The notes under the pieces were generated by a model. That model was not told where the DNA came from, made no database searches, and worked only from the letters and a program-made list of their open reading frames with translations. From Pecten maximus (taxonomy: Eukaryota): DNA of 64,000 nucleotides. This document shows, piece after piece, positions 3,345-58,782 of the stretch. The position numbers were made by a program, and so were the translations under genes. The stretch lies in assembly GCF_902652985.1 (NCBI RefSeq), contig NC_047019.1:30938001-31002000 (forward strand), given 5' to 3'. The stretch's first letter is position 1. Each line of letters opens with the position of its first letter.

Positions 3345-5850
3345 TTCTCGATTTACTTCTTTTCTTTCTGATTTTATAACATGTACACATTGTACAAAGT
3401 TAATGATGTGTACTATAAAGTATAAAAGGTCATTTAATTTGACGCATACCTTTTTTAAATATCACAAATTAAAGTTCTAATGTCTGTAGTAATGTCATTG
3501 ATTTACAATGGCTTCAAATCTATTAGACCTTTTTAGATGAGTTCGCTTATAGTTCTTGTTGAAATAAATTAGTATGTTAGGTATAAGCCTTCAATCATAG
3601 TGAACCAGCTTAGTTCTTGTTGAAATAAATTAGTATGCTTCAATCATAGTGAACCAATCATGTCAATGAAGATAACTTGAGAGTATTTAAAATGTAGATT
3701 GGTGTATATGAGCACTCATGCATATAAATGTGTGAGTTTCTAAGGAAACGTTGAGTTTTGATAGAAGATTTGCTTTATCATTAGGTAGAACCAAAATGGA
3801 TTCCAATGTTTATTAGCTGCTGATGAGAACCTGTCGCAGATCTTGTAGATGCCTCTACTTGTATATCTACCTGTACTGGTGGATACACATATATTCATCA
3901 CATTTCTTATCTTTCTAATCTGTAGCTTTAAACCATTGATCATTACTATATAAGTAGCTGTCAGTCTAGAAATTGCAATTAAATTACACATATCGACTTA
4001 ATCCCTTGGTTAAGTGTTTTCAATTTGAGCTTGTAGTGTTTATACATGATATGTATAAACCTTTGGGCAGAACCAATATGTGCAGTTATAATTACAGAGC
4101 TGATGCATTGTGTACCGTCTTCACAGTCTATCCAGTCGTATAAAAGTGTACTAGATATTTACCGTACTGGTCAATGTGATCAGTACACATGATCACATGC
4201 CATGAAGCAGGGTATATACTGGCACAATTAACATTGGCCAATTGCAATGATAAGGTATGTTTTGTCTACTAGATATCACACATGTTCAGGGAATGAGAGG
4301 CTAAGAGGCCAAGGGTAGGTAGAATGTGTATGTAAATATATCATCACAGATCATATATACATGTACTTCTGATCTCCACAATCAAAGACTAGCCACTGTA
4401 CATAGGGCACTGTCCGGTCACTGACCATGCATGGTTCATGTATGTGATATGTGCAGTATTAAAGTTACAGATTAGGTAGACATTCTTGATACATACACAT
4501 GTACTGTATTTTACATGTGGTGATTATAATGATGAAACATGAGCTTCACACTCCTGCTGGCAAGTACTGTATGCTGTCTTATAGGGACAATGGTCTGGTG
4601 TGATCATGGATGTCACATGTCTACATTTTTACTGTCTGTATTTGCCAGTTGTCAGATTTGACAGCGAGCACAATGCCCTGAGCACACAATGGCCACCACC
4701 ACCACCTTATCAGAGGGAGGCCCTCTATCGGTAATGTTATTACTTGGTATTGGTGGTGGTGGATTGAGCAGGAGCCAGATCTTATAAATAGCTTCCTGAG
4801 ATAAGGTTTGAAGTGATGACCTAGCATAGTGAACTTTCTGCTAGAGTGAAGGTTACAAATCTTGAGGCAATAGAAGTTTACCTATATATATACTTACACT
4901 GTACATGTGGGTACCTATAGTGTATTCACATAATTACAGGTCATGGAAGCCAGACTTCATAGCCTGTATATATACACCTACCTGTTTGGTAACCGAAGGT
5001 GTGTATATATATACCAGCAGTAGATATATATTATATATAGTATCATATATGTTTTAAGTACAAACTTACACTGTCAAATCTGTATTAGAAAATCTCCTTT
5101 GGGAAGGCCCTTGCACAGGTAACAGGATCATTTATCAATTCACAATTAAATTAATACATTTATAGGAGATATTAACAGTAGATTGTCTCTTAATTGAGTT
5201 GGTCATATGAGCAATTTTGGCTGCTTGTATTATATTCTAGACCATTGTAAACTGGATGTGGAAGTATAATGTATAGGTACATGTATACAGATCTAGTCTA
5301 CATCATTATGTGTACTTTTACAGAATCATGATAAAAAATTTGAAATATTGCAATTGTACGTAATCATTGATACTAGTATAGGTGATATTTATATGCCAAC
5401 CATGTGTGTTAGTTTACCAAAAGAATTGCCAACTTCAGAACTTGAATAAAATTGGTCGAAAAAAAAAAAAATCCCTTAAAGAATCGAACTTAAAGGGATA
5501 TAACAAAACAAAATCTCAACCCTTTATGTGTAAATTCTTGAATGTCAAACTCGAAGCAGAGTCTTGGGTTGCACAATCAAGGACATCACAAGTGCTGATG
5601 AGATTTCTTTGTTACATCTTCAAGGTAGAGAATGATACTACTGATAAGAAACAAAAAGATCACATGAAGCTTACAGAGAATTTATGATGATATTGTGATG
5701 GTGGAAACCAACATCATTTTGAATATCATTTTAAATTTCTGGTATAACTGTATTTTGGTCTTCATAAAATATTATTTAATTCAATGATTAAAGTTGAAAA
5801 AGAAAATATTTCTACTTCTTTTGTTAAACTATGTTTTTTTCTCATTTCAG

Positions 5851-7476
5851 AATTCCATACGACACAACTTGTCCTTGCACAGTCGGTTTATGAGGATTCA
5901 AAATGAAGGCACAGGCAAGAGTTCATGGTGGGTCATCAATCCTGATGCCAAACCCGGTAAAACACCACGTAGACGTGCTGGTAGCATGGAAACAAAAAGT
6001 TACGAGAAACGACGGGGACGAGTGAAGAAGAAAGTGGAAGCTTTACGTGCAGCTCTAGAGAATAACAACAGTCCATCGTCCACTACGGACGACTATCTTA
6101 CAGACTCTCCGCTGGGATTCCAGCTCAGTCCAGAGTTCCGTCAGAGGACAAGTTCAAATGCCAGTAGTTGTGGCCGCCTCTCCCCCATACAGGCTGGAAT
6201 TGAGCCTGATCTCCATGACAACCAGGTACCACCTATGTCACCTATCCCATGGGGAAGTGAGGAGGGTACTGTGCCTAGTTATGACCAGCTTGGACAGTAT
6301 GATCAGCTGGTAGACACTCTAGTTGACAGCATGAAGCTGGGGGAGAGTGGCCTCAGTCTAAGTATTGACAATGGTGGAGGACTGGGGGGCCTGGAAGGTG
6401 ATATAGAAATGCTGACAGAGTCCAGTTTACAACAACAGCTCATGCCTCCCAGTGACAATATAAATCTGTCCCAGTATAGTGATCAAAGTGCCAACTATGA
6501 TGATGCTCAGTACAGGAACATGCCTGCCCCACCCCCATACAGGGACGCCATGCGCCGCAGCCCCCAACAGCAGGGTGTGGACCAGCTCCCACAAAATGGC
6601 AACTTTTCAGATCTGGGTATTTCCCAGCAGAATACCCTCAGGATGTATGGACAGACAACAGATACAGGTCTGTTTACAGGTGACATGTTGCTGCAACAGG
6701 CCCGTATTAGCCCCAGCTCCAGTCAGCTCAGTGTAAACACTCAACAGCAACAGTTGTCCTCCCCTGCCAGATCTCCTCAAGGTTGCCAGCAGATCAGCCC
6801 CTCCCAGTTTGATAGTCGGGTGGGGTTCTCTCCTTCCCCTCAAGGCAAGCAACTTTCCCCTCAGCTCACCAGTCGCCAGCAGCACTCAATCCTGCAGCAA
6901 TGTCTGGAGGCGCCTTCAGACTCACTGTTGAGGGCAGCCCTCACACAAAACTCTGGTCTGACTCAGCAGAAAACACTCCCCTACCCACAGATGTCCATGT
7001 CCTCTGCACCCTCCACACAGCCACAGTACAATGTTCGTTATGGTAACACACAGCTCAATATGAGGCCACAACAACCTGCTCCGGGTCTTAATGGAATCAA
7101 CAATAATGTTGCCTCCACAATGCACCAACAACAACAACAAACACAACAGCAGCAGCAGCAAATGGGTCATGGTCTGTTGGGTAATATTGGGAGTGTTCCT
7201 CGTCAGTCTTCTGACAGTCCTCAACTTGTGCTTTCCTCATCCAACAGACAGAACATATCACCTCAGGATCAGGGGTTGGGTAATATGCCTCCCACTGCTC
7301 CCAGCTCAAATTCTCTTAATGAAATTGATGCTGATTTCTTTGATTTGGGATGTGACATGGAACAGGTGCTCCAACATGAACTCAGTCTTGAAGGCAATTT
7401 AGATTTCAACTTTGATACAGTAAATAACAGCTCCTCAACGTCTTCTGGAACAGACACTCAGAATTTGGTACGATAA
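5851..7476 (+). CDS. FoxO: Forkhead box O transcription factor, terminal coding exon (upstream exon(s) outside the window)
   Basis: Acceptor ttttttctcatttcAG ends at 5850. The exon opens [27 protein letters not shown] (C-terminal half of the FoxO forkhead domain, at the conserved intron position). Akt motifs RRRAGS and [15 protein letters not shown], and the C-terminal CR3 motif [22 protein letters not shown], are present. The first 19 aa of the ORF-track call are intronic. Confidence 0.96.
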
Positions 7477-30100: not shown

Positions 30101-32789
30101 GTTTCCCTTGTTTGAAAAGTACTAGAGGTTTCTTCTGAGTTTACACAGATTAGTAAGACTTAGAAGAAGAGAAAAGTAGAGAAAAGATCAATCTGACATG
30201 GAACCTATGAAGAACATTCAATGGTGGGCGCCAAGATCCCTCTGGGATCTCTTGTTAGGATATACTAGAACCTTATTACCTCCCTTTTCCACTAATTGTT
30301 AGTTCTTTTTATAATTACCTCCCTTTGACCATAAAAATCAATATATTCATAAAAAAAAATTCATCTCCATAGATATTTCATCTCCATTGACTTAATTTAT
30401 ACACATATTTCTTATACTTTTTCACTTTCAATTGTTTTAGTTTAATTCTACTATTGTTCTGTTTGTATTGGGGAAGACTTATATAGGCCAAGCCTGCTGT
30501 CTAACCCATTTGTATAAATGTTATACAATAAAATATGTTAAAATGAAAATGCAGTTTTAAATAGTAGCATATATAGTATCATTAGGATTTGCTAAGGTTT
30601 GATTAAGATTGTTTTTGAAGGATCAAGATTAGTCCATGCCTGCATAGTACTTGGAAAGAAACTTCTCTTGTAGATATTGATTTTTGATCTTGGTATATTA
30701 AAAATCTATGATGAAGCAGGTTATGAGTATTTTGCTGATGATTTATAAATATGGTTCGATGAAATTCAATAAATAATCAGGGATCATGTGATTTATAATT
30801 TTGTACATTAAAATTAATTTGTGCTTATGACGCCTTTATTCTAATTTTTCCACTTTGACCACTTCTTAACCAAGTAATGATTTTCATTTCATCAGCCCCT
30901 AGATCAGTTATTGTTGACAGCAGCATGGGAGCTGGACACATTCCTTTGACACATTCTTTTGACCCAGAATGGCCCAGTTAATGTCATTAATACTGAAAAG
31001 TGAATGTCAACACTACCCTGAACATACCCAACATGAAGTGCCTACACAAGTGAACATCCACATATCCATATATGTATTCACAACTTGCAACCGAAAAAAG
31101 GGTGACAACTGCACCTGCACTTATTTCACAGGTTGCACACCACCATCTCAGTTCACACTGTCCATATACAATGTATTTCAATACAAGGCTGTTCATAATA
31201 TATACTTCATATAAAACCTACTACTATTCATTCTGATAGAATTAATACAGGGACCAATTATTGTTCATCGGGATCATAGATAGCTCAAACATTTATTGTT
31301 CTTTGGTTTTGTGTCATACAGGTATGTTTAAACAAAGTCAGAGTATATCACGGTCGATGCTGTCTGACATCACACCAGAGGACCAGCGCTGCCGAGTATA
31401 CGGGAGGTTTAACTCGGTGTCCAGTATTGGCTTCATCCTCGGGCCACTAGTCAGTAGCACCATCATCAAACACGAAGGAGGATTCTACACAGTCAGCTGT
31501 CTCTGTGGCTCTGTATTTACTCTGAATGCTGGTACAAGTCTTTAATTTGGTTGGTTATGATACTCCACTGGTAGTAATTCACTAAATTAGGGTTTAACAT
31601 CAACAGATGTCACATACATTCCTTAATTGAAATCATCATTAGTTTACCCAAAATGTTCCTTCAGTTTACTTAAGCATCGTGCATTTATACATTTTGAACA
31701 AAAAATAATTGAAATGTGTGTAGCTGCCTACACGGTCCATGAAGTTTTTTTTCCCACTATGGTCTGTACATTTTTGGTAAAATTTCTCTTGTAAAATATT
31801 TCCTATGGCAATACATAAGACTACCGGTAGATCTTCATACATATTGTCAAGGAAACAACTATCAAAAGGTCAAGGTCAAAGTCTTTACAGTTAAGATACA
31901 ATGATTTTTTTTATATAAAATTAGCTTCATTTTCATACAACTACATAGTTAAAAAAACTGTTATTTAGGTTTTTCATGGCAGATGTTGACATGACAAATT
32001 TATGTCATAACAAAAAACAAATTAAGAAGCTTAACATCTTTATTGCCACTCAATGCATATCACATAGTCTGAATTGGTTTGACCTGTTTTGGGTATCAGG
32101 CTTTAAACAATGATTTTATTTTGGTTTCAGTACTGATGTGGTTTGTTTTACCATCAATTGGTCCCACCAAGAAGAAGTCTTTGCACCACAACAGTCTGAC
32201 AAATGTTATGATGTCATTTAAACATCTAAACTGGATAGACCTTTGGGATATTTTCCTGGTGAATTTCTTTGCTGGATTTTCTGTGATGCTATTCCGCAGT
32301 AACTCGGATATGATTTTCAGGGACAGGTTTGGGACAACAAAACAAGACATGAGCTACCTGACCTCCTATACGGCTGTAGTATCGGCCCTGTGTGGCTTTG
32401 TGTCGGGGTGGATAGCTAGTCACTACAAAGACAACTACCAACTGTATAAACACATGTTATATGGGTTATTTGTCACGTTAGTAGCTTTAACGTTAGTCGT
32501 GGACTTCTGGATGTATGTCGTAGTGCTGGCATTGCTTAGTTTTGTGACAACAAATCTACGAGTGGCTAGTGCCAGTCTGCTGGCGTCCAGAGCTGGTACT
32601 GGAGGTGTAGGGGCTGTTATGGGTCTGGGGGATACAGTCATGTCTGTAGCACGCATGTTGTCCCCTCTCCTATCTGGTATGGCTTTGGAAGTCAGCTCAT
32701 CTGGTCCTTCCCTCATAGGGTCAGTGATGGCTGCAGTAGCTGTTGTAGTCGTCTCCCTACGGTCACAATTAAAACTTCACCAAGAGTGA
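24174..32789 (+). CDS. MFSD9: MFSD9-like major facilitator superfamily transporter, paralog A (6 exons, ~389 aa)
   Basis: Exons 24174-24212 (MDVTTLLYVSGFL), 25855-25942 (DLFGVSMIV..LGASSTAAGFVG), 27595-27638 (SVYGALQLVSSPTV), 28062-28191 (GRWSDVMGRK, MFS motif A), 31322-31531 (MFKQSQSISRSMLSD..GFILGP) and 32131-32789. All introns are GT-AG with consistent phases; total 1170 nt in frame. Confidence 0.88.
24500..24855 (-). pseudogene. 3' fragment of a LINE RT (intron 1 of paralog A)
   Basis: MIHKLKWATLQ..., PFFPQTVT*WNL, resembling the SFFP.T...WN.LP C-terminus of L2/CR1-group elements. Confidence 0.55.
26150..26540 (-). mobile_element. Short HINE-type element, minus strand
   Basis: CAAGAGGCCCATGGGCC..TCACCTGAG end, two internal repeat units and a (GGAC)n microsatellite. 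Confidence 0.6.
26707..27161 (-). mobile_element. Miniature LTR retrotransposon (TRIM) with a tRNA-Thr-like sequence inside each LTR
   Basis: Direct repeats ~26740-26896 and 27003-27161 ending GGGTTACA (TGTAAC on minus). PBS TGGCGCCCATGTAGGGAC (26984-27001, tRNA-Lys-like). PPT GGAGGGGGAGTA (26897-26908). Internal region about 105 bp. Confidence 0.85.
28222..28401. repeat. 45-bp perfect tandem repeat, 4 copies (intron 4 of paralog A)
   Basis: Unit TTTCTGAGTGGTAGGGTAAATATAAACTAATATTGTACTTGGTAC. Confidence 0.93.
29115..30256 (+). repeat. 155-bp satellite array (about 6 units) with a HINE-like 3' end
   Basis: AACATGGCCGACAGGCAGCCATCTTGG at 29183, 29338, 29493, 29648, 29804 and 29959; ends AAGATCCCTCTGGGATCTCTTGTT. 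Inverted units also occur at about 33810-34175. Confidence 0.85.
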
Positions 32790-36779: not shown

Positions 36780-37966
36780 ACAAACCATGGTTTACAGCTG
36801 AGTGTCTCACCAAAAGGCGGGCCTTCTATGATACGAAAAGTATATACGCAAGTCACAAAACTGATCTCAATAGACGAAATATGAAAAAAATAAAAAAGGG
36901 AATATATGAGAATATCAAAAAAGTAAGGAAGAGTTATAACGTATCTAAATTTAACATTGAAAATCACATACGAACTATGTCAAAATCTAATCCTAAAGAA
37001 TTCTGGAACATCTTAATTCATTCCCTGCAGGTAGGGCGTAAGAATTGTACCTGCTGCTCCCATTGCATGATCGTAAGAGGCGACTAAATTTGGGATATTA
37101 TCTTTTCTTTCTTAACAACTTTCTTCTTCCTAATGTCTCCCTCGACAATGCCTCACTTTTGGCCTTTAGTTGAGCGTTCGCCCCTGTGAGGAAGGCTTTG
37201 GGTTCTGTCCCCTAGCCGAAACATACCAGAGTCTTTAAAAATGGTAGTTGCTACTCCTGCTTAGCGCTCAGCATATTTGGAGTGGGACGACTGGTTCGCC
37301 CGTTGTCAGTATAATGTGACCGGGTGGGGTGTGCTGCTGGGTGTCTTCGGCAGTATGCTTCAGTGAGGTAGCACTATAAATCGGCAAAAGTTCCGGCCTA
37401 TCACAAGGAGACTTAACACGAACATACCGCAGCCTCCCAAAACACATACCCACTCACCACACGCATGCATGTCACACGCACGGGAGGCCGTCCTTAAATG
37501 ACCTTAGCTGTTAATAGGACGTTAAACAAAATAAACCAAACCAAACCAAACCAAACATCTTAATTCATTCAATAAAAGTAATAATAGAAATGGCAATACC
37601 GCTATATCTTTGGATTTCAAAAAATTAAGCAGCTCTGAGGATGACGAGGATGAAGTTATCATTCCAGATATACGAAAATGAGTTTGATTTTATACTGAAT
37701 AGTGAAGTGACTGAAAATGAAATTAGACAGGTAATTGTAACCTTCCTAGTAATAAGACACCAGGTTTTGATAATATTATCAATGAGTATATAAAACATAC
37801 ACACCTCGGTCTGTATATATTAAACTTTTTAATGTTATTTTAAACTCAGAATGTGTACCAGAAGCATGGACCATTGGAGTAGTTAAACCTTTATACAAAA
37901 AGAAGGGTGACCCTAAAAATCTCAATAACTATCGAGCGATCACACTAATCTCTTGTCTTGGCAAAG
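36780..37966 (+). pseudogene. Degenerate non-LTR retrotransposon (LINE) ORF2, linker and RT N-terminus; target of the SINE and Polinton insertions
   Basis: KPWFTAEC, SNPKEFWNIL, NKTPGFDNIINEYIK and VPEAWTIGVVKPLYKKKGDPKNLNNYRAITLISCLGK, with frameshifts. Confidence 0.85.
37024..37553 (+). mobile_element. SINE-like retroposon with tRNA-like segment, (AAACC)n tail and 17-bp TSD
   Basis: TSD AACATCTTAATTCATTC at 37007-37023 and 37554-37570. 3' end GACCTTAGCTGTTAATAGGACGTTAAAC followed by AAACC repeats. A second copy lies at 35059-35518 (minus). Confidence 0.88.
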
Positions 37967-38259
37967 AGTAGTACAAAAGTACCGGTTCTGGGCCACCCCT
38001 CTCCCCTATATAATCCTTACCACCCCCCAGTTGCACCCCCCTTCGACAGGGGGGTACCGATGACGTCACAGAGGGTTATCCGGTGCACTATAAAAGAGGT
38101 CACACCCCTCGGGGGGGGGGGGGGGGGGGGGGGTACCGATGATGTAACAAAGGGTCAGTCACCCCCTTCGTTAGGGGGGGGGGGGGGGGGGGGGGGTACC
38201 GATGTTGTCATGTTGATGACGTGTTTGGATTTTCCAATCTATTTCGAGGGATTGCATCA
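37967..38259. repeat. Left terminal inverted repeat of the Polinton
   Basis: Reverse complement of 44559-44849, with only about 4 substitutions plus poly-G length differences. Confidence 0.95.
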
Positions 38260-38548
38260 CAATCAGATATAACTTACAGGTCTTTCTAGAACAATATATA
38301 AGATAACAAGCTATTTTATGTACTGCATTTTATTTTCCCCGTCGCGATGGAATGAATGTAGGTCGGAGAGCCATCCCACATCCACCCTTACAAATAATAC
38401 CTACTCTATCATTGACAAATGAATATTTACATCTAAATGAGAGCCATCTATCACCCATGCTATAGTACTTGAGCGATCTGTATATATGTACGCTCTTTCC
38501 CATAACAAAGGGTCTTGATATTAGACCTTTCTAGGATAGTTCACTCTC

Positions 38549-39658
38549 CTATAAATCGGTTACATCAGACGCGTGAATCCAGGAGTTAAATTTCTTCGGC
38601 CAGTGTAGCCATTTCACGTAGTATTGTTTGTTTCGACCTTTTCCTCTGGTTTTCAGAATGGTCTCCAACTTCCACATATCATCGTTCCTAACATCTATTT
38701 TCTGTAGCTCGGACTGGTAGAACGTTCCTTTGATCTCGTCTCCATCATAGTCTTTGACTCTATACACCGGTAAGCCTCCACGAAGTATCTTTTGAGAAAT
38801 GGTGAATATCTCCCCCGTCCATTTTTGGTCATATTCTCGGGAGAAAAGGTTTCTCAAATGGGACAATCTTACTTTATCTCCAACTTTGAACTTGAAAGGT
38901 TTACGGACCTTCTTTGTTTTTCGCAAGATTGGTTGGTTTTTAGGCCAATACATTCTCCACCAGATAGACGTCTCCTTATCTTTAGACACATTTGTGGGGG
39001 GCATACCGATCGTTCGGTGATACGTTCGATTGTAGCTATTGGCAAATGTTTGTAATTTCTTAACGTAATCGTAGTTTCTTCTGTGCGTGAAATATCTGTA
39101 CAGTCTGGATTTTATGGTCTTGATTACACGCTCGGCTACGGCTGCTTTGGTTTCGTTTTGGGCATATAAATGCTGTATGCCATATCCATCCAGGAGTGTA
39201 TTCACCGCTTTCGATCTAAATTCTTGGGCCTTATCGGTACGTATCCGGTCCGGCTGTCTCCCCTCGTATAAATTGTCCTGTAGTGCTTTTGCTACAGACG
39301 CACCTTTCTTGTCTTTTAGAGGTCTCATCCACAAATATTTAGAGAAGACATCTATGACAACGAGTACATAGGAATAACCATCGTTTTCACTCTTGAATTT
39401 GACCATGTCCATGAGATCAGCCGACCATTGGTCGTCGATACCCGTCACTATGATTTTGTTTCGCTTGAATGGACGTCGTAGGGATCTCTGAAGACTGTAT
39501 GGCTCTTGGCGTTGTAACCATTTTCTTATTTTATATTTGCTGACGACGTATTTTCCGTCTTTCCGTACATATCTATACAATTTGTCGGGCCCCGAGAAAC
39601 TTCCCGCCTTTGCAGGGTCATAATAAATATCTCTTAGATAATCCTCCCATGAAGACAT
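38549..39658 (-). CDS. Polinton retroviral-like (RVE/DDE) integrase with C-terminal chromodomain
   Basis: Motifs IYYDP..GSFSG, WSADLMDM (D), RIRTDKAQEF (D), KAAVAERVIKTIK (E), FKVGDKVRLS, and chromodomain ILKTRGKGRNKQYYVKWLHWPKKFNSWI. The ORF is open from 39709; Met 39658 is preferred because TATAAATA lies 52 nt upstream of it. Confidence 0.93.
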   Translation of the reverse strand: MSSWEDYLRDIYYDPAKAGSFSGPDKLYRYVRKDGKYVVSKYKIRKWLQRQEPYSLQRSLRRPFKRNKIIVTGIDDQWSADLMDMVKFKSENDGYSYVLVVIDVFSKYLWMRPLKDKKGASVAKALQDNLYEGRQPDRIRTDKAQEFRSKAVNTLLDGYGIQHLYAQNETKAAVAERVIKTIKSRLYRYFTHRRNYDYVKKLQTFANSYNRTYHRTIGMPPTNVSKDKETSIWWRMYWPKNQPILRKTKKVRKPFKFKVGDKVRLSHLRNLFSREYDQKWTGEIFTISQKILRGGLPVYRVKDYDGDEIKGTFYQSELQKIDVRNDDMWKLETILKTRGKGRNKQYYVKWLHWPKKFNSWIHASDVTDL

Positions 39659-39709
39659 CTTTCCTCGTCGAGTACGACACGTTGGAATGAAGCTTTGAAC
39701 AAAATACAT

Positions 39710-39717
39710 TATTTATA
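39710..39717 (-). promoter_or_regulatory. Candidate TATA box of the Polinton integrase gene
   Basis: TATAAATA directly after the ATPase stop codon, 52 nt upstream of ATG 39658. Confidence 0.45.
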
Positions 39718-40389
39718 TCAGTTTTGATCTGCTTCGGTGTCATCGTCCGATTCATCATCTTCGGAGTCATCTTCTGATTCTTCATCTTCAGATTCATCAT
39801 CCCACAACTCTTCTAAAACATGTCGATTCTTTTTAAGTGCCATCTTGATCGCTTTACTATCTCCATATCCATCGTCTATGAATTCTGTTACATCATCCAT
39901 GATCTTTCCGTGGATCATACCATTTCTCAGTTGAAGAATGTACTGGATAATGGCTTTATAATTTTGGTAAAATTTCTCCATGTCTTCAGATTCCATCTTC
40001 TCGTTCGCTTTCGTCTGTGCTTCGTCATCAGACATGCCCTCGTTTACGTATTTATCATACTTTTTATTCCATTTAACCTCATTTGAAGACCTTGACTCAT
40101 TCATTAATGAATTGAAAACTTCATTTTCTTCACTTTCACCACTTTCCTCATCGGACTCTTCATATGAGATCCACCTTTTTGGCTGCGGTCCATCTTCTTC
40201 CTCTATTGATTCTCGTTTCCTTTTCCTAGAATCATTTTCTGGACACCAGGTTTTCAAGTGTCTCTGTAAATCGTGCATGTCTTGGAACATGATACCACAA
40301 TCGTCACAGGCAGCCATATCTTCCTGTTGAAGCTGTGTATCGTCTAGAGTTTGCTGTTTCTGCTGCTGCTGTTGTTGTTGTTGTTGTTG

Positions 40390-40432
<43 letters not shown>

Positions 40433-41291
40433 GAATACGTCTGCTCGGTTTGAGTGTCAGCCTCAAAATGAACATTAGTTTGATCTCTCTGTCCTTTTAT
40501 AGACTGCTCAGACAAGATGTCACTGCGCATGCGTAATGACTCAGATGTTGATGGTTTCAAATCGACGAGAAGATATCCATATGGCTTTTGCGTTGCATCT
40601 TTGAAGTATCTCATCAGGTGTTGATCATTTTCGGGGTACATCTGTCTGGCTAAAGTCATGATCTGTTGTTTATCGATAGGGTTATTGAACAATATCAAAT
40701 AGTGACAATTTCTCCGCTGTGTGGGGTCTTTATTGTAGTAGAGATTCTGATTGATGGCAATAACAGACAAATTTCTGTGGTGGCTTCCCTCCGTAAATAA
40801 TTCGTTAATACGAGGGTCCTTGCTTGCGGTCGACATCAGATCGTCTAGGATGACGAGGTTCCTTATTCGAGGATTTAAGAAGGAATCCTGGTCTAAATCC
40901 AGCGGTATTCCCTTGATGAATTCCACCTTAGGTATTACGGTTGCTTTGATAACGTCGTAGAGAGGTTGCCATCGTTTGTACAGCCATATAATTCGTTGTG
41001 GAGCTGGTTTTATTTTGGTCAAGCAGTTTTGTAGCAGTAACTTGACAAAGTAAGTCTTCCCACAAGAAGTGGGCCCCGATACGTTTGCAGTAAAGGGATG
41101 TATGAAAACGAAATTCTGCTGCTGCTGGGGTAATACATCATATACAGACTGCTTCATAACGTCTATATAGGATGACTTCTGCGGCGGCGGCGGTGGATAC
41201 GCATGACTGCCCTGATGCGACAGTGGATACGCATGACTGCCTTCTTGCGGCGGCGGCGGCGGCGGCGAATACACATTACTACTCTCCTGCA

Positions 41292-41323
<32 letters not shown>

Positions 41324-41439
41324 TGGCTGTCTTTTTGTGGTGGTGTTGTTAGATAACCATGTATGTTTCTCTGATGTCTTTTCATTACATCCATTCTGGA
41401 AAACCATCTTCGGCAGTCACAGCATTGAACTTTATTCAT
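39718..41439 (-). CDS. Polinton A32/FtsK-HerA-like packaging ATPase with N-terminal C2H2 finger and polyP, and C-terminal polyQ, second Zn finger and acidic tail
   Basis: Walker A GPTSCGKT, Walker B LVILDDLM, and A32-like GSHHRNLSVIAINQNLY..RRNCHYLILF. Zn fingers CCDC..HQRNIH and CDDC..HLKTWC. Uninterrupted 573 aa. Confidence 0.88.
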
Positions 41440-41491
41440 GTTTACCCCTCAGTGTCCAGGTATGAAATGACAAACTTTTAGACTTTAGGTC

Positions 41492-41499
41492 TATTTATA
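41492..41499 (-). promoter_or_regulatory. Candidate TATA box of the Polinton ATPase gene
   Basis: TATAAATA 53 nt upstream of ATG 41439; the same motif and spacing occur before the integrase ATG. Confidence 0.5.
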
Positions 41500-41683
41500 C
41501 TCTATTGGGCAGTGCATTATGGGTAAAAAAAAACACCTCAACACATTGTAACAGTCGATATTTATAATCCCTGTCAATTAGACAGTACACAAGTCAGGGA
41601 CCCATCTTGTGTCTGTCTATACATAGAACCTACTTTAAAATGGACAATATGATTTATTTACACTATTGAGAGTCTTCACTCTC

Positions 41684-44338
41684 CTAATTTTGTATCCTCC
41701 AATGGCCGTATGCATAGCTAGTAATCCCATCATCTAGCAGATACCGTTTATCGTCAAATGGTGACAATCCAATCTTATTCATATTAATGTTGTAAAGTTG
41801 ATGCTTATAACTTCTTATCTGGTTCATCTGTGACATGTGGATTTTCCTCTCGAGGAGACACTGCCTATACTGTTCGTATCGGGTATTGTTTTCAATGACA
41901 TGCATTTTTATCCCCTTTGCCTTCTTAACCTCTGTTATGTCCCTTTCAACTTCGCCATTGTTGTAAATGTATGCATACATTTTAGCCTTCAATCCAACAA
42001 AGGCATGTATCGCATTTCCATGAGTTTCATCCTTCATTTTCCCAAGGACCTTCTTATTTGTCAAACTATAGAGCCAATGATCTTTTCTGTAGTCTGATGT
42101 ATCGAACAGGTGGTGATCCTGAAGCATGTCTTCGTAAACATCTCCTGTTTGTATGATATAAGCCAAAGAGTCGGTGTCCGTAAACAAAAGAGTTGCTTTA
42201 TCTCCGTACTTTTGTTTCATGTGATTGTAGTGAAAGTCGTACATCAAGGTTTTTGACATGTCTAAAATGCTAAAGCCAACATAGATAGGCCTATTCAGGT
42301 AGAGTTTCTGTTTGAGCATGTGCACGGCCACGAGATTGTCATTAAATATCCGAAACGCATTAAACGACGGTTTGCTTGCTAACTTTATTGCCTTCTTTCT
42401 GCTGTTCACGAGCTTAACATCCATCCGTTTTCTTAAATTGTCCATGGTTTTTCCAAACACACTGTTGTTCATCAGTTTGTAGAAGTCCTTTTCGAAGTCA
42501 TTTCGCGAACTTTTGCGTCGTTCCGTATTAAAATCAATGTATTTCTTCAGCCAAGGTCCTTGCTTGAAAGTCAATACTCTGTGGTTTTTAGTCAATTTCA
42601 TACCCAGTGAGATGTATTGCTTGAGATTTCTGTAATGAAGTACATATTTCTCTTTGTTGTTCAAATTGGGAACCAACTTTTCTGTTGCTGGCAAATGAAG
42701 AGCCTCTACTTGGCTAGGATGAAGGTCTTTCCATAGATCCTTAGCATACGGAGAAAGCATGTCTTCTGTAACTGTAATTCGCCCAGGAGCTAATGGATAG
42801 TCGTTGTGGAGTTCATGAAGTTCTTTTGGATACTCTAGATCAACTTCCAAGATGAAACCGGTATCGGACTCATCGGGTACTTCCATTACGTTGATATCCC
42901 TTTCGTCTTCACCTAACCAACGGAAATCGTGAGTTGGCAGATATTGGGACATTGCCCAACCATTCAAATTATTTGCATCTAAATATGTAATATATTCTGA
43001 TGACTTTGAAGTCCGAGCCGTTCATTACCGAAATGATGTTCCATGTTCTTAAATCTGTCCATTCCTTCCTTTGCCAAATTTCCTATGAGCTTCTCCAGTG
43101 ATGTTCCCATAAACTGGAAGCTGTCAATAAAATCCATACATCCCATGGAGAAAGATATGTACTTTTCCATATTATTTGGAATACATTTGATCTCCTTCTG
43201 TACATTTCCAATGGCCTGCATGATAAGATGTGAATCATAACCTCTAAGATTGTGAAAGACGACGGGGATTCGTCCCGTATATTTGTAATTAATATTACAA
43301 TCGTTGTGAGCTGGTCCAGTGAATGTACCCGTCACGTGACAATGATCCCGCACTCTGTCGTCCCCTAACTCCTTCCCACAAATATGACAGTCTACTGCCG
43401 TTTTAAATGATTGCCAATCACTACCCGTCATGATCATCGGTTCTACGTGTTTCAGCTTTTGTTCTATTTCCTCTTGCTCCTTAAGCATACAGTCCACAAA
43501 GTGTTCAGTCACATCTGGTCCTCTATAGACTACAGGGTTCTTGGAAGTCTCAGGTGTGAGACCAACTACTTTGTAGGCAAAACTAGAAGGGACATGCTCA
43601 GTAATTTTCTCAGTGTGCGACCTGTTTGGATCATTGGTACACCCTTGTATCGGAACCTGGAAAGCTTCAAAATCAGCATAGATGATATATGGAACTTTAA
43701 GCTGCTTTCGGACATCTTTATAAAACAGCCATTTATCTTTTTCCTCTGGAAGTTTTACTCTCTGTGCACCATGCCCCTTGCAGTAAGTTATGTGGTCGGA
43801 TAGAATCCTTTCTTTTGTGAATCCCTGTAAACAGTACATACAGAAGAAATGACGATGACTGTCGCTCTTTTGATCGTTTAACAAACGATTTAAGTCCTTG
43901 ATCCAGCAATAGTGAGACTTTCGACCATCTGTTAAAAATATCAAGTCTACATGCTGGTCATACCTCTTTTGTGTGATGTGTTTTGGAAATAAAACTCCCT
44001 TTTCATATCCAAGCACGTTGATGGATATTTTGTTTCTGATTTCAAACTTTTGTATGTCTGTGATTTTTACAGGAAAGGCAATATCCGTGAAATCGAGTTC
44101 ATCTTGATGATCGGTGTATTTGGTCAACCGCTCTGGATGATTTTTCACCGGGTGTAATCCTGCTAACACAGACCACATAAAACATTTCTTATCCTTATTT
44201 TGAACGTTGATAATAGCATGTTTAGACCTCAGCTTGATTGGTAGGGGGATATAGCTGGATCCTTTGAGAGGGCTGTATTTGCTCATATGTATTTGTATTT
44301 GGAGCACCTTGTCCAATGTCCAATTACTACCCTGTCGC
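41684..44338 (-). pseudogene. Polinton protein-primed DNA polymerase B, 5'-truncated, with an internal deletion/frameshift near 43013
   Basis: GSNWTLD..YSPLKGSSYIPLP, ExoI IYADFEA, Endo-VII-like CHIC..RDHCHVTG..AHNDCN, ExoII FHNLRGYDSH, then a frame jump to YITYLDANNLNGWAMSQ (motif A), KLMNNSVFGK (motif B) and FTDTDSL (motif C). Combines ORF-track pieces 42979-44316 and 41684-42967. Confidence 0.92.
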
Positions 44339-44558
44339 CATATTCAGCATCATACTGCAGAATGTTTGTTCTAGGTAAAACCAATCATACCTTACCCATT
44401 GAAATTCATTTACTACATAACCATATTCAATCGTTCGCTACGGAGATATTCATAAATGTTGTATAAGATATGTATCGTCTTTTGTATTTTGTTTACTTTG
44501 TGTATCATAGAATGTCCCAAATGAACTTGACTGGTTGAAAACCAGCTATTTCTAAGCA

Positions 44559-44849
44559 TGATGCAATCCCTCGAAATAGATTTGAAAATCCAAACACGTC
44601 ATCAACATGACAACATCGGTACCCCCCCCCCCCCCCCCCTGACGAAGGGGGTGACTGACCCTCTGTTACATCATCGGTACCCCCCCCCCCCCCCCCCCCC
44701 CCCCTGAGGGGTGTGACCTCTTTTATAGTGCACCGGATAACCCTCTGTGACGTCATCGGTACCCCCCTGTCGAAGGGGGGTGCAACTGGGGGGTGGTAAG
44801 GATTATATAGGGGAGAGGGGTGGCCCAGAACCGGTACTTTTGTACTACT
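44559..44849. repeat. Right terminal inverted repeat of the Polinton
   Basis: Reverse complement of 37967-38259. Confidence 0.95.
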
Positions 44850-46719
44850 GCAAAGTATTAAAGTGTACCCCGAACGAAAAACGATATTCAAATATGTTAT
44901 TCTTTGTAACCACCAATGAAGAATGTCGCAAACCGCATCAAAATCGGTTGGCCGAGTGCCGAGATATCGCACATCGAAGTATGCGATTTGCACCTGTCGG
45001 TCGACTGTTTTAAAAAGTGGGAGAAAGGAGAACACACCGCCAGTAGCATAGAGGACAGTGTGAACAGTAGCAACACAAACATGTCTGAATACGGTCTGGA
45101 CATGAAATTTGAGGTTGATGACTTTGGCAAATATTGCCGACAAGAAGTCGGAATCTAACAGTATAAGTTTGAGCTTTAAAAAAAAAAGTAATAATTAGTG
45201 AAATTGACTCTGAAAATGACCGCTTGGTTAACACAGACTGGTGTAATAATCGGTCAATCACCAATAAAAGTATATTAGTTATGTGTTAACCATTTCTTAC
45301 TCATTACTAAAGAAAGGAACACAGCATCAACATTTTAAATAAAATAATGTGCCATTTTATTCGCAAATTAATATTCAAATGAACACACCAACAATACAAC
45401 AGTTCTGGATACTCTGGTTTGTGAGAAAAGACGATACACACGTACAGTAAATGTATGCGTTATATTCTATACAAAACCCGCTTCTAGTCATGAAGGACCC
45501 TTAATTCAGAAAGTAATATATTATAATCATCATGATCTACAATAGACTAAATCTCTCCCGTATGAATACCAGTGTTGAAGCTTACAACAAACTTCTACAT
45601 ATACAGATTTTATCCCTTATTTTACATGTCATGGTCTCAGGGATTACGGACGATTAAATGCTTGAGAAAGATATAATTTATATACGATCGTTGTCAGTGA
45701 AATTATATAAAAGTGATTCGCAACAATTACAATATAATTGATACTTTATGTACAGGTACATAGCATAGGTACTGATTAAAACCATCATTTTAGCTCCGTT
45801 TTTTTATGATAAAAACATACAATTAAGTTCATCGTGACTAATCATAATTAATACTAAAACTTATAAACTCGCAATGATTTTCGTGTATGATTTTTTCAAA
45901 TTTTATTTATTTATTTTTTGTTATTACATGTATAATTATTATTTTTTTTTTTTTTGTAATTGTGTCATTATCGTGAAGTGATCGAGGTCCTTGTGGTTTT
46001 ACTTTCCATTCGTCATATCTTCACTTAAAACAGGATTTTAAAAGATGTATATACATGTTCGGAGAATTACGAATTCTCAAGTTTGAGTGGGTTAGTATAC
46101 CGCTAAACAATTACCAGGTGTGAAATGACGGTCCACAAGCTCGTCACACCTGTCACTGCACCACAGGTGTCTGTGATTTCTGGTGTTCTAATCGGCACAC
46201 GCCGATAATTGCTTGTGAGTTCACGCGTTTGGTTTCTATGCACTTCAAAAAATCATTTCATTTTCCGAAATTTTGGCCCCCAGTGGTGAAACATATTCAG
46301 TATTAACATCAGTTCCAGATTAAAAAATATTGAACTATGCTTAAACAAAAAGATAGAACAATATGTAAATTTAGAACCAGTAATATATTTCTTCCAGGGT
46401 GATGGACCGGAACGTCACCTGAAAATAGAATTTGTCCGTTAATTCGTAAAAAAGTATATACTTAGTTATTATACATGTAACCCATCTATTCATAAAATGA
46501 AAGGATTATCATCATCATGCAATATTAGAGTATCTAGAAAGACATTTGAAACATAATATGTGAATTTCAAACATCAATTTGTAATATATATATATTGTAA
46601 AAATATTCAAATGAAATGTTTTAAAACATACATGCTATCATAAGTACTATAACTATTTTATGATTAAATATACCATCCTGTATTGAACGAAGTTTTATAC
46701 AGTGTATACTACAAACTTT

Positions 46720-52810: not shown

Positions 52811-58782
<5,972 letters not shown>

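Follow-up and report, generated by a model that had tools for sequence, protein, structure and literature searches.

The 64,000-nucleotide stretch of Pecten maximus DNA analysed here (NC_047019.1, positions 30,938,001 to 31,002,000; 'the window') contains, on direct reading of the sequence, a 6,883 bp Polinton at 37967-44849 that begins with AGTAGT, ends with ACTACT and is abutted at both ends by a perfect GCAAAG target site duplication. Its inverted repeats of 293 and 291 bp differ by three mismatches and by the lengths of their poly-G/C runs, and its three genes, for an rve integrase, an ATPase and a DNA polymerase (polB) split over two frames, all lie on the minus strand (Table 1). A preliminary description made from the sequence alone had reported these ends, the perfect duplication, near-identical repeats of ~290 bp, three co-oriented genes and a minus-strand AATAAA by the integrase, and all of this held on re-reading. 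A terminus with its own perfect 6-bp duplication was present at 14 of the 30 loci tested, the window included, and at one more (L029) both were recognised by eye; given the 13 other loci that look alike, the ends seen in the window are no chance pattern. We consider it probable that this is a young and defective member of a family of three-gene Polintons that natively lack capsid genes, with the borrowing of capsids as the favoured role for its ATPase.

Table 1. Features of the element and of its target site duplications, in window coordinates.
Feature	Position	Strand	Remarks
Left target site duplication, GCAAAG	37961..37966	.	inside LINE-like reverse-transcriptase fragment
Integrase-side terminal inverted repeat	37967..38259	.	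AGTAGT start, internal GGTACCGATG repeats, poly-G runs
AATAAA 3' of integrase	38329..38334	-	
~150-bp 3' element	38400..38551	-	77% identical between integrase and polB 3' regions
rve integrase with C-terminal chromodomain	38549..39658	-	DDE intact; open frame 38549-39712, likely start 39658
TATA-like box	39712..39717	-	just past ATPase stop; putative integrase promoter
ATPase gene	39718..41439	-	C2H2 finger, A32/FtsK-type ATPase, poly-Q, C2H2 finger, helical domain, acidic tail; frame 39718-41448
CCAAT and TATA-like motifs upstream of ATPase	41494..41508	-	putative promoter
J3, 95-bp deletion	41675..41677	.	polB 3' untranslated region
polB C-terminal piece	41684..43021	-	polymerase motifs; out of frame with N-terminal piece
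polB N-terminal piece	42979..44343	-	terminal-protein domain end, vOTU-like domain, exonuclease motifs, endonuclease-VII-like insert; without start or promoter
J2, 463-bp deletion	43010..43012	.	3-bp overlap, frameshift, late exonuclease region
J1, ~2.0-kb deletion	44338..44339	.	took non-coding upstream DNA, zinc fingers, most of terminal-protein domain
Non-coding left arm remnant	44339..44558	-	97-98% to L032/L022 vs 94% to polB sister L021
polB-side terminal inverted repeat	44559..44849	.	
Right target site duplication, GCAAAG	44850..44855	.	

The integrase and the ATPase are intact, as had been claimed. The integrase (Pfam rve, E 3e-13) keeps its catalytic triad, D81/D142/E176, which all 20 aligned rows share, and the TATA-like box upstream of it is probably its promoter. 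The ATPase, of 573 residues, has a weak Pfam match to Pox_A32 and keeps Walker A and Walker B, motifs that are intact over 44 aligned rows. Its structural model (mean pLDDT 83) is best matched by the packaging ATPase B204 of STIV and by A32/IVa2 proteins, and the predicted fold is closest to viral packaging ATPases. For its C-terminal helical domain neither the ESM Atlas nor a homolog search returned a name, and comparison with a 312-aa gene of a capsid-encoding family gave no match; a prediction of an ATPase-integrase complex scored 0.01 with the alignments unused and counts neither way. Among the best 120 of 419 matches, the named homologs come from P. maximus itself (the best, at 92%) and from Mizuhopecten, Argopecten, Solemya, Pinctada, Mytilus, Ruditapes, Mya and Mercenaria.

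All three deletions of the window copy fall inside the polB unit, and their extent is given by a full-length relative that could be located on C8 in a terminus search (46 matches, from 40 of 60 candidates). This element, L021, is 9,344 bp long with its own duplication, CTCTTG, and is the closest sister among the matches listed: it aligns to the window in three blocks at 97.5-99.3% identity, with gaps at J1, J2 and J3 only. Splicing was ruled out as the origin of the deletions, none of which has GT-AG ends. The comparison bears out two earlier statements, that a deletion at ~44340 cost polB its N-terminus and with it the greater part of the terminal-protein domain, and that a second at ~43013 broke the gene, through the loss of 463 bp and a frameshift; the third, J3, had been overlooked. 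It contradicts the further statement that a virion block was lost at ~44340, as the ~2.0 kb missing there are non-coding upstream DNA and the start of polB, and the parent family is without a capsid, penton or protease gene. Besides its three genes L021 holds no additional frame longer than 57 aa, and no ATG frame of at least 45 aa was found in its upstream arm. The polB of the family is of the protein-primed type, with terminal-protein and vOTU domains, the gene being broken in the window copy; a PF03175 match is absent from the window copy and from L027, which places them in the Beta class. The modelled N-domain of the parent polB (a natural copy) resembles the little finger of Y-polymerases (Z 9.1, rmsd 3.4, 110 aligned residues), and a little-finger-like fold is the one reported for Polinton terminal proteins in the available text of PMC11161782. 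In the upstream arm of L021, box A/box B motifs like those of tRNA genes occur within a conserved segment at ~1250-1330, which is found at the equivalent site in L025, L026, L027 and L036, and there is also a duplicated unit of ~225-280 bp; both are missing from the window copy, and ARAGORN and Rfam found no credible RNA gene in the parent upstream region.

The family to which these elements belong is natively capsid-less, comprises at least four terminal-repeat families and retains a zinc-finger-fused A32-type ATPase. Ten elements besides the window copy carry all three genes between perfect, differing 6-bp duplications, with otherwise only insertions. Those with AGTAGTAC termini measure 9,344, 9,720, 9,840, 9,916, 10,909, 10,945 and 11,326 bp, the three largest having long non-coding gaps or insertions; AGTAGTGAT termini bound an element of 7,384 bp, and TGATGAAT termini bound two, of 8,392 and 8,662 bp, in which the gene order is different. 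A fourth terminus type, AGTAGTAGG, has one polB-bearing member plus derivatives. The typical member is 8-10 kb long and encodes a terminal-protein-primed polB, the zinc-finger-fused ATPase and an rve-chromodomain integrase, with the ATPase and integrase genes adjacent and co-oriented in all arrangements seen.

That capsid genes are absent was established with capsid, penton and protease profiles trained on metagenome contigs alone, with no sequence from this genome. These recover five of five capsid-encoding controls of the genome, whose identity was corroborated by a separate check (capsid E <= 6e-65), and match none of 26 elements bounded by repeats, of which this genome contributed 25 and a metagenome one (best E 0.19); the outcome was identical when the controls were included in training. 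For the penton profile, whose queries we take to be pentons from gene order, unconfirmed by fold, the controls scored E <= 1e-7 and the best non-control 1.1, and the protease controls bear Peptidase_C5 matches, an adenain-like protease being absent from the 26 elements. One locus outside those 26, L078, gave a weak match to the tail of a penton query, over an inverted piece of polB. The surroundings of the ATPase gene tell the same way: 150 listed matches resolve into 135 loci, which are interrelated and hence not independent tests, and a capsid match lies within 20 kb at 0 of the 61 loci with at least 50% identity, as against within 10 kb at 61 of the 74 below 50%. Capsid genes are plentiful in the same genome, at no fewer than 84 loci, including those of a complete-looking 16.4-kb family and of a polB-less capsid-encoding family, and the resident capsid-encoding families have ATPases of about 230-275 aa vs about 570 aa in the capsid-less family. 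These capsid genes were found by protein search; genome searches with Pfam PF21738 and PF00770 were blank, as were their controls, and are uninformative. No capsid-bearing parent with the same termini turned up among the termini searched, and a viral contig collection held no relative.

Comparison of window and L021 yields few differences (synonymous/non-synonymous: integrase 6/5, ATPase core 3/1, ATPase tail 4/0, polB pieces 9/2 and 3/7). Pooled by hand, and from only 19 vs 21 substitutions, the ratio of non-synonymous to synonymous rates (dN/dS) is about 0.12 for integrase and ATPase and about 0.18 for polB, so that the contrast sought by the preliminary description as a sign of selection on the first two genes did not appear; the loss of polB looks too recent to have left one. 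Across the family, dS of the ATPase core could be estimated in 12 of 21 comparisons, the other nine being saturated, and in all 12 its dN/dS lies at 0.03-0.13. All three family genes are under purifying selection, the ATPase strongly. The family has also moved recently, because L027 and L165, which are 99.5% identical and have three open frames each, occupy different sites.

Several derivatives of the family were seen. The loci L029 (219-1008) and L030 (188-980) are gene-less palindromes of ~790 bp that share one internal junction, containing a terminus from a second subfamily, and have different 6-bp duplications. Perfect duplications also flank L028 (264-7969), L075 (5607-8635) and L179 (86-3556), none of which has a functional polB. 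The gene content of the polB-less derivatives L075, L173, L179, L028 and L076 is the ATPase alone, the integrase with part of the ATPase, or a copy of both genes at each end, and in L075 the termini come from one family and the genes from another. As L028, L029, L030, L075 and L179 look as if they were mobilised in trans, defective forms can integrate. A head-to-tail array of a 2,194-bp non-coding left arm (L205, G000:C10:40691500-40701000), with units that are 99.9% identical and each begin at the terminus, may be a replication by-product or an assembly artefact.

In a quick ATPase tree the scallop capsid-less families A-D group together (Shimodaira-Hasegawa-like approximate likelihood ratio test, SH-aLRT, 94), and a wider group (SH-aLRT 96) takes in L161, L095 and L125, which adjoin capsid or protease genes; the capsid-less clade is, by this tree, nested among capsid-linked ATPases. 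The finger-ATPase fusion is older than the loss of the capsid, for in L161 it is complete and is neighboured by genes for capsid and protease. The L161 contig, a Polinton fragment with capsid, protease and fused ATPase, sits in a metagenome-assembled genome of Sedimenticola, and its presence in this bacterial bin is probably host contamination. Most of the 84 contigs fetched from outside this genome are too short for their gene content to be judged. One of them, the metagenome contig L081, is a repeat-bounded 10,582 bp with a fused ATPase, an integrase and no capsid match, and in L094 polB, ATPase and integrase are adjacent within 3 kb. L081 and L176 belong to the same ATPase clade and are likewise repeat-bounded and capsid-less, but their polB is of the PF03175 class, so that either class of polB occurs together with the ATPase clade, a pattern that indicates polymerase exchange. 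Recombination among relatives seems to be frequent more generally, to judge from the mosaic identity of window 38300-44500 to L022, L025, L027, L035 and L077, which is 84-98% over the integrase and the tail of the ATPase and mostly 70-75% over polB.

How such a family might persist can be sketched from known Polinton biology. Intact members would excise or be copied into a linear form, would replicate from their inverted repeats by means of their own polB and terminal protein, and could recombine with co-replicating relatives before being reinserted by their own integrase; the window copy would be incapable of replicating alone. The ATPase may act as a genome-selecting motor that loads element DNA into the capsids of resident capsid-encoding Polintons. 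Capsid borrowing is favoured because the catalytic core of the motor has stayed conserved even where synonymous sites are saturated, and because its ancestors were genes linked to capsids; it strikes us as the likeliest role for the ATPase, held tentatively and at a little short of even confidence.

A number of observations weigh against the proposal of a natively capsid-less family that borrows its capsids. No matched helper was found among the resident capsid-encoding families examined, whose ATPases are 28-47% identical to that of the family and fall outside its clade. Beyond this genome, capsid loss is represented by one complete contig (L081) and by short adjacencies (L094, L085), and the counts within it are lower bounds, the genome searches having covered 150 of 279 candidates for the ATPase and 96 of 190 for the capsid. 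Neither an empty site nor an undeleted allele of this locus was seen among the joints listed (139 more joints besides), where both flanks are repeats, and the deletions may predate or postdate the insertion.

It is a serious possibility, if one in which we have slightly less confidence than in capsid borrowing, that the ATPase has instead been exapted, the elements being purely intracellular, self-synthesizing transposons in which a protein of fingers, ATPase and acidic tail serves transcription, replication or integration. With its two C2H2 fingers, poly-P/poly-Q tracts and acidic tail the protein does resemble a DNA-binding regulator, and the IVa2 protein of adenovirus also acts as a transcription activator. 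The constant adjacency and co-orientation of ATPase and integrase, the company that the ATPase clade keeps with both polB classes in L176 and L081, and the want of a closely matched helper would all sit well with such a role. A new role is, however, unnecessary for a fusion that predates capsid loss, as L161 shows with its capsid and protease genes next to the fusion, and in nine capsid-less Polintons tabulated earlier the ATPase vanished together with the capsid (PMC4028283).

The model of the preliminary description, in which the 6.9-kb form had already lost a virion block and polB when it was mobilised and integrated as a satellite, with integrase and ATPase under selection, seems unlikely. 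In its favour, the repeats, the ATPase and the integrase are untouched by all three deletions, the family does yield integrating defective forms (the L029 and L030 palindromes and the polB-less L028, L075 and L179), and active polB-less polintons have been reported in butterflies (preprint 10.1101/2025.02.07.637071, in the text available). But the parent never had a virion block, selection on integrase and ATPase shows no contrast with polB, and three deletions of the same sizes placed at random spare the same units 16% of the time. Mobilisation in deleted form likewise found no support: in searches that scored the best 39-40 candidates in one assembly, J1 and J2 were spanned by the window alone among 45 matches listed and J3 by the window alone among 62. 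Two distant matches that extend 7 bases beyond J1 are not the junction, polB being continuous there in L059. A population check comprised contigs from four sequencing runs, in which rare variants are lost, and its listed entries speak for the sequence forms present rather than for this locus in other animals. Among them, a contig of run X1 continues for 613 bases past J2 unlike the window, as an undeleted form would, run X8 (RNA, at a guess) has undeleted-like continuations at J2 and J1, and a contig of run X2 ends exactly at J2, as expected if both forms occur; C3949 and C1634 were rejected as alternative haplotypes of this locus. Nor is there any need for a polymerase borrowed from a helper, as family members carry their own polB. 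The idea of a satellite thus survives at the level of the family and for the capsid only, not for the polymerase nor for this copy, which looks like a young, single, defective insertion without detected daughters that may have integrated in defective form.

Still less probable is a bipartite system in which one segment, with polB, ATPase and integrase, is for replication, a multicopy, polB-less segment supplies the capsid, and each depends on the other. Candidates for the second segment exist in L063+L064 (G000:C10:3.12 Mb) and L065+L066 (C3:52.03 Mb), which have frames for integrase, finger-ATPase, penton, capsid and protease, are without polB and are bounded by 95-98% identical repeats, with many near-identical capsid matches, but their termini differ from those of the capsid-less family, the common genes are only 36-45% identical, and complete Polintons with capsid and polB in the same genome (L071+72) could serve a polB-less capsid family as well. 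Finally, ordinary decay, by which each capsid-less copy would be an independent post-insertion deletion of a full-length Polinton, accounts for the stops, frameshifts and insertions of many copies and is scarcely credible, given compact layouts common to several families with distinct duplications, young copies with open frames, capsid remnants in 0 of 26 elements and a capsid gene near 0 of 61 loci.

In the surroundings of the element, FoxO exons (Forkhead, FOXO-TAD) of a host gene lie at 5788-7476, and two host major-facilitator transporter exons, at 32073-32789 and 57988-58782, stand on either side of the element. The fragment into which it inserted is presumably from a long interspersed nuclear element (LINE), a label that comes from translation of the flank, a Pfam search of the fragment having given no match. 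This target is interrupted by a very high-copy repeat at ~44858-45500, which starts a few bases to the right of the duplication and reaches a contig depth of 10^4 in three DNA runs.

The copy in the window taken alone is a defective one-off; the family is the real finding. The main argument for regarding Polintons as viruses is the joint conservation of capsid, protease and ATPase, and capsid-less Polintons have been thought to drop all three; the scallop clade is large, recently active and without capsid or protease, and its ATPase is strongly selected. Either Polinton capsids are real and parasitised, which would give an indirect handle on virions that have gone unseen in animals, or the ATPase has taken on another function, and both readings are directly testable in farmed shellfish. 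No account of a clade that lacks the capsid but retains the ATPase was found in the literature searched, to the extent of its available text (including PMC8097293, PMC11131425, PMC11296320, 10.1101/2024.03.25.586562 and 10.1101/2025.04.19.649669), and Repbase, subscription journals or preprint supplements may hold entries. The survey of Starrett et al. was seeded on the protease gene, according to the text available (PMC8502044), and would miss capsid-less elements, so such elements may be common. They may be mis-annotated as host zinc-finger genes. The family thus appears to be an undescribed Polinton variant in which the packaging ATPase is uncoupled from the capsid. A far broader proposal, which we regard as possible and rather doubtful, would have integrating, self-replicating Polinton satellites throughout the bivalves that gave up the capsid, kept the motor for resident capsids, exchanged polymerases of the two classes and in turn sustain a further tier of parasites of their own, either gene-less or polB-less; if true, these would be a eukaryotic counterpart, within the animal germline, of capsid-pirating phage satellites.

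Phage satellites of the PICI/SaPI and P4 types pirate the capsids of their helpers, and the analogy is a functional one: they too have their own replication, integration and packaging determinant, no capsid and a helper in the same host. There is no homology, and packaging in helper capsids is for the scallop family only a proposal. The hallmarks of a Polinton or Maverick are all found, namely a protein-primed polB (in the family), an rve DDE integrase, inverted repeats with a 5-8-bp duplication and an A32/FtsK ATPase; of those of a Polintovirus or Beta adintovirus the Beta-class polB is present and the double jelly-roll capsid, penton and adenain-like protease are absent. The pPolB1 Polintons/Mavericks (Beta adintovirus class) share with the family a terminal-protein/vOTU polB without PF03175, the integrase and ATPase types, inverted repeats and a 6-bp duplication, as far as the available text goes (PMC8502044). 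They differ in length, given as 13-25 kb in the part available (10.1101/2023.08.22.554363) vs 8-10 kb here, and in having the major capsid, penton and adenain that the scallop family lacks, whose ATPase is longer, with fingers and a helical domain. In the account of Krupovic et al. (2014), nine of 72 Polintons are without capsid, protease and ATPase, and were interpreted as occupying the transposon end of a continuum between viruses and transposons (PMC4028283, available text); unlike these, the scallop family, which shares the lack of capsid genes, has an intact ATPase under purifying selection. The nearest precedents, compared by entries in Table S1 of that paper only, are P_Pd1.1 (Platynereis, 10,777 bp) and P_Gi1.2 (Glomus, 11,019 bp), which keep the ATPase alone of the three. 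The polB-less polintons of Pieris are also repeat-bounded, defective and apparently still mobile, but they kept the capsid genes and lost polB, the reverse of the scallop family (10.1101/2025.02.07.637071, in the text available). Cytoplasmic linear plasmids and transpovirons, described in the accessible text of PMC11161782 as derived from Polintons through loss of the morphogenetic module, are alike in that loss, whereas the scallop family is chromosomal and has retained both its integrase and its packaging ATPase.

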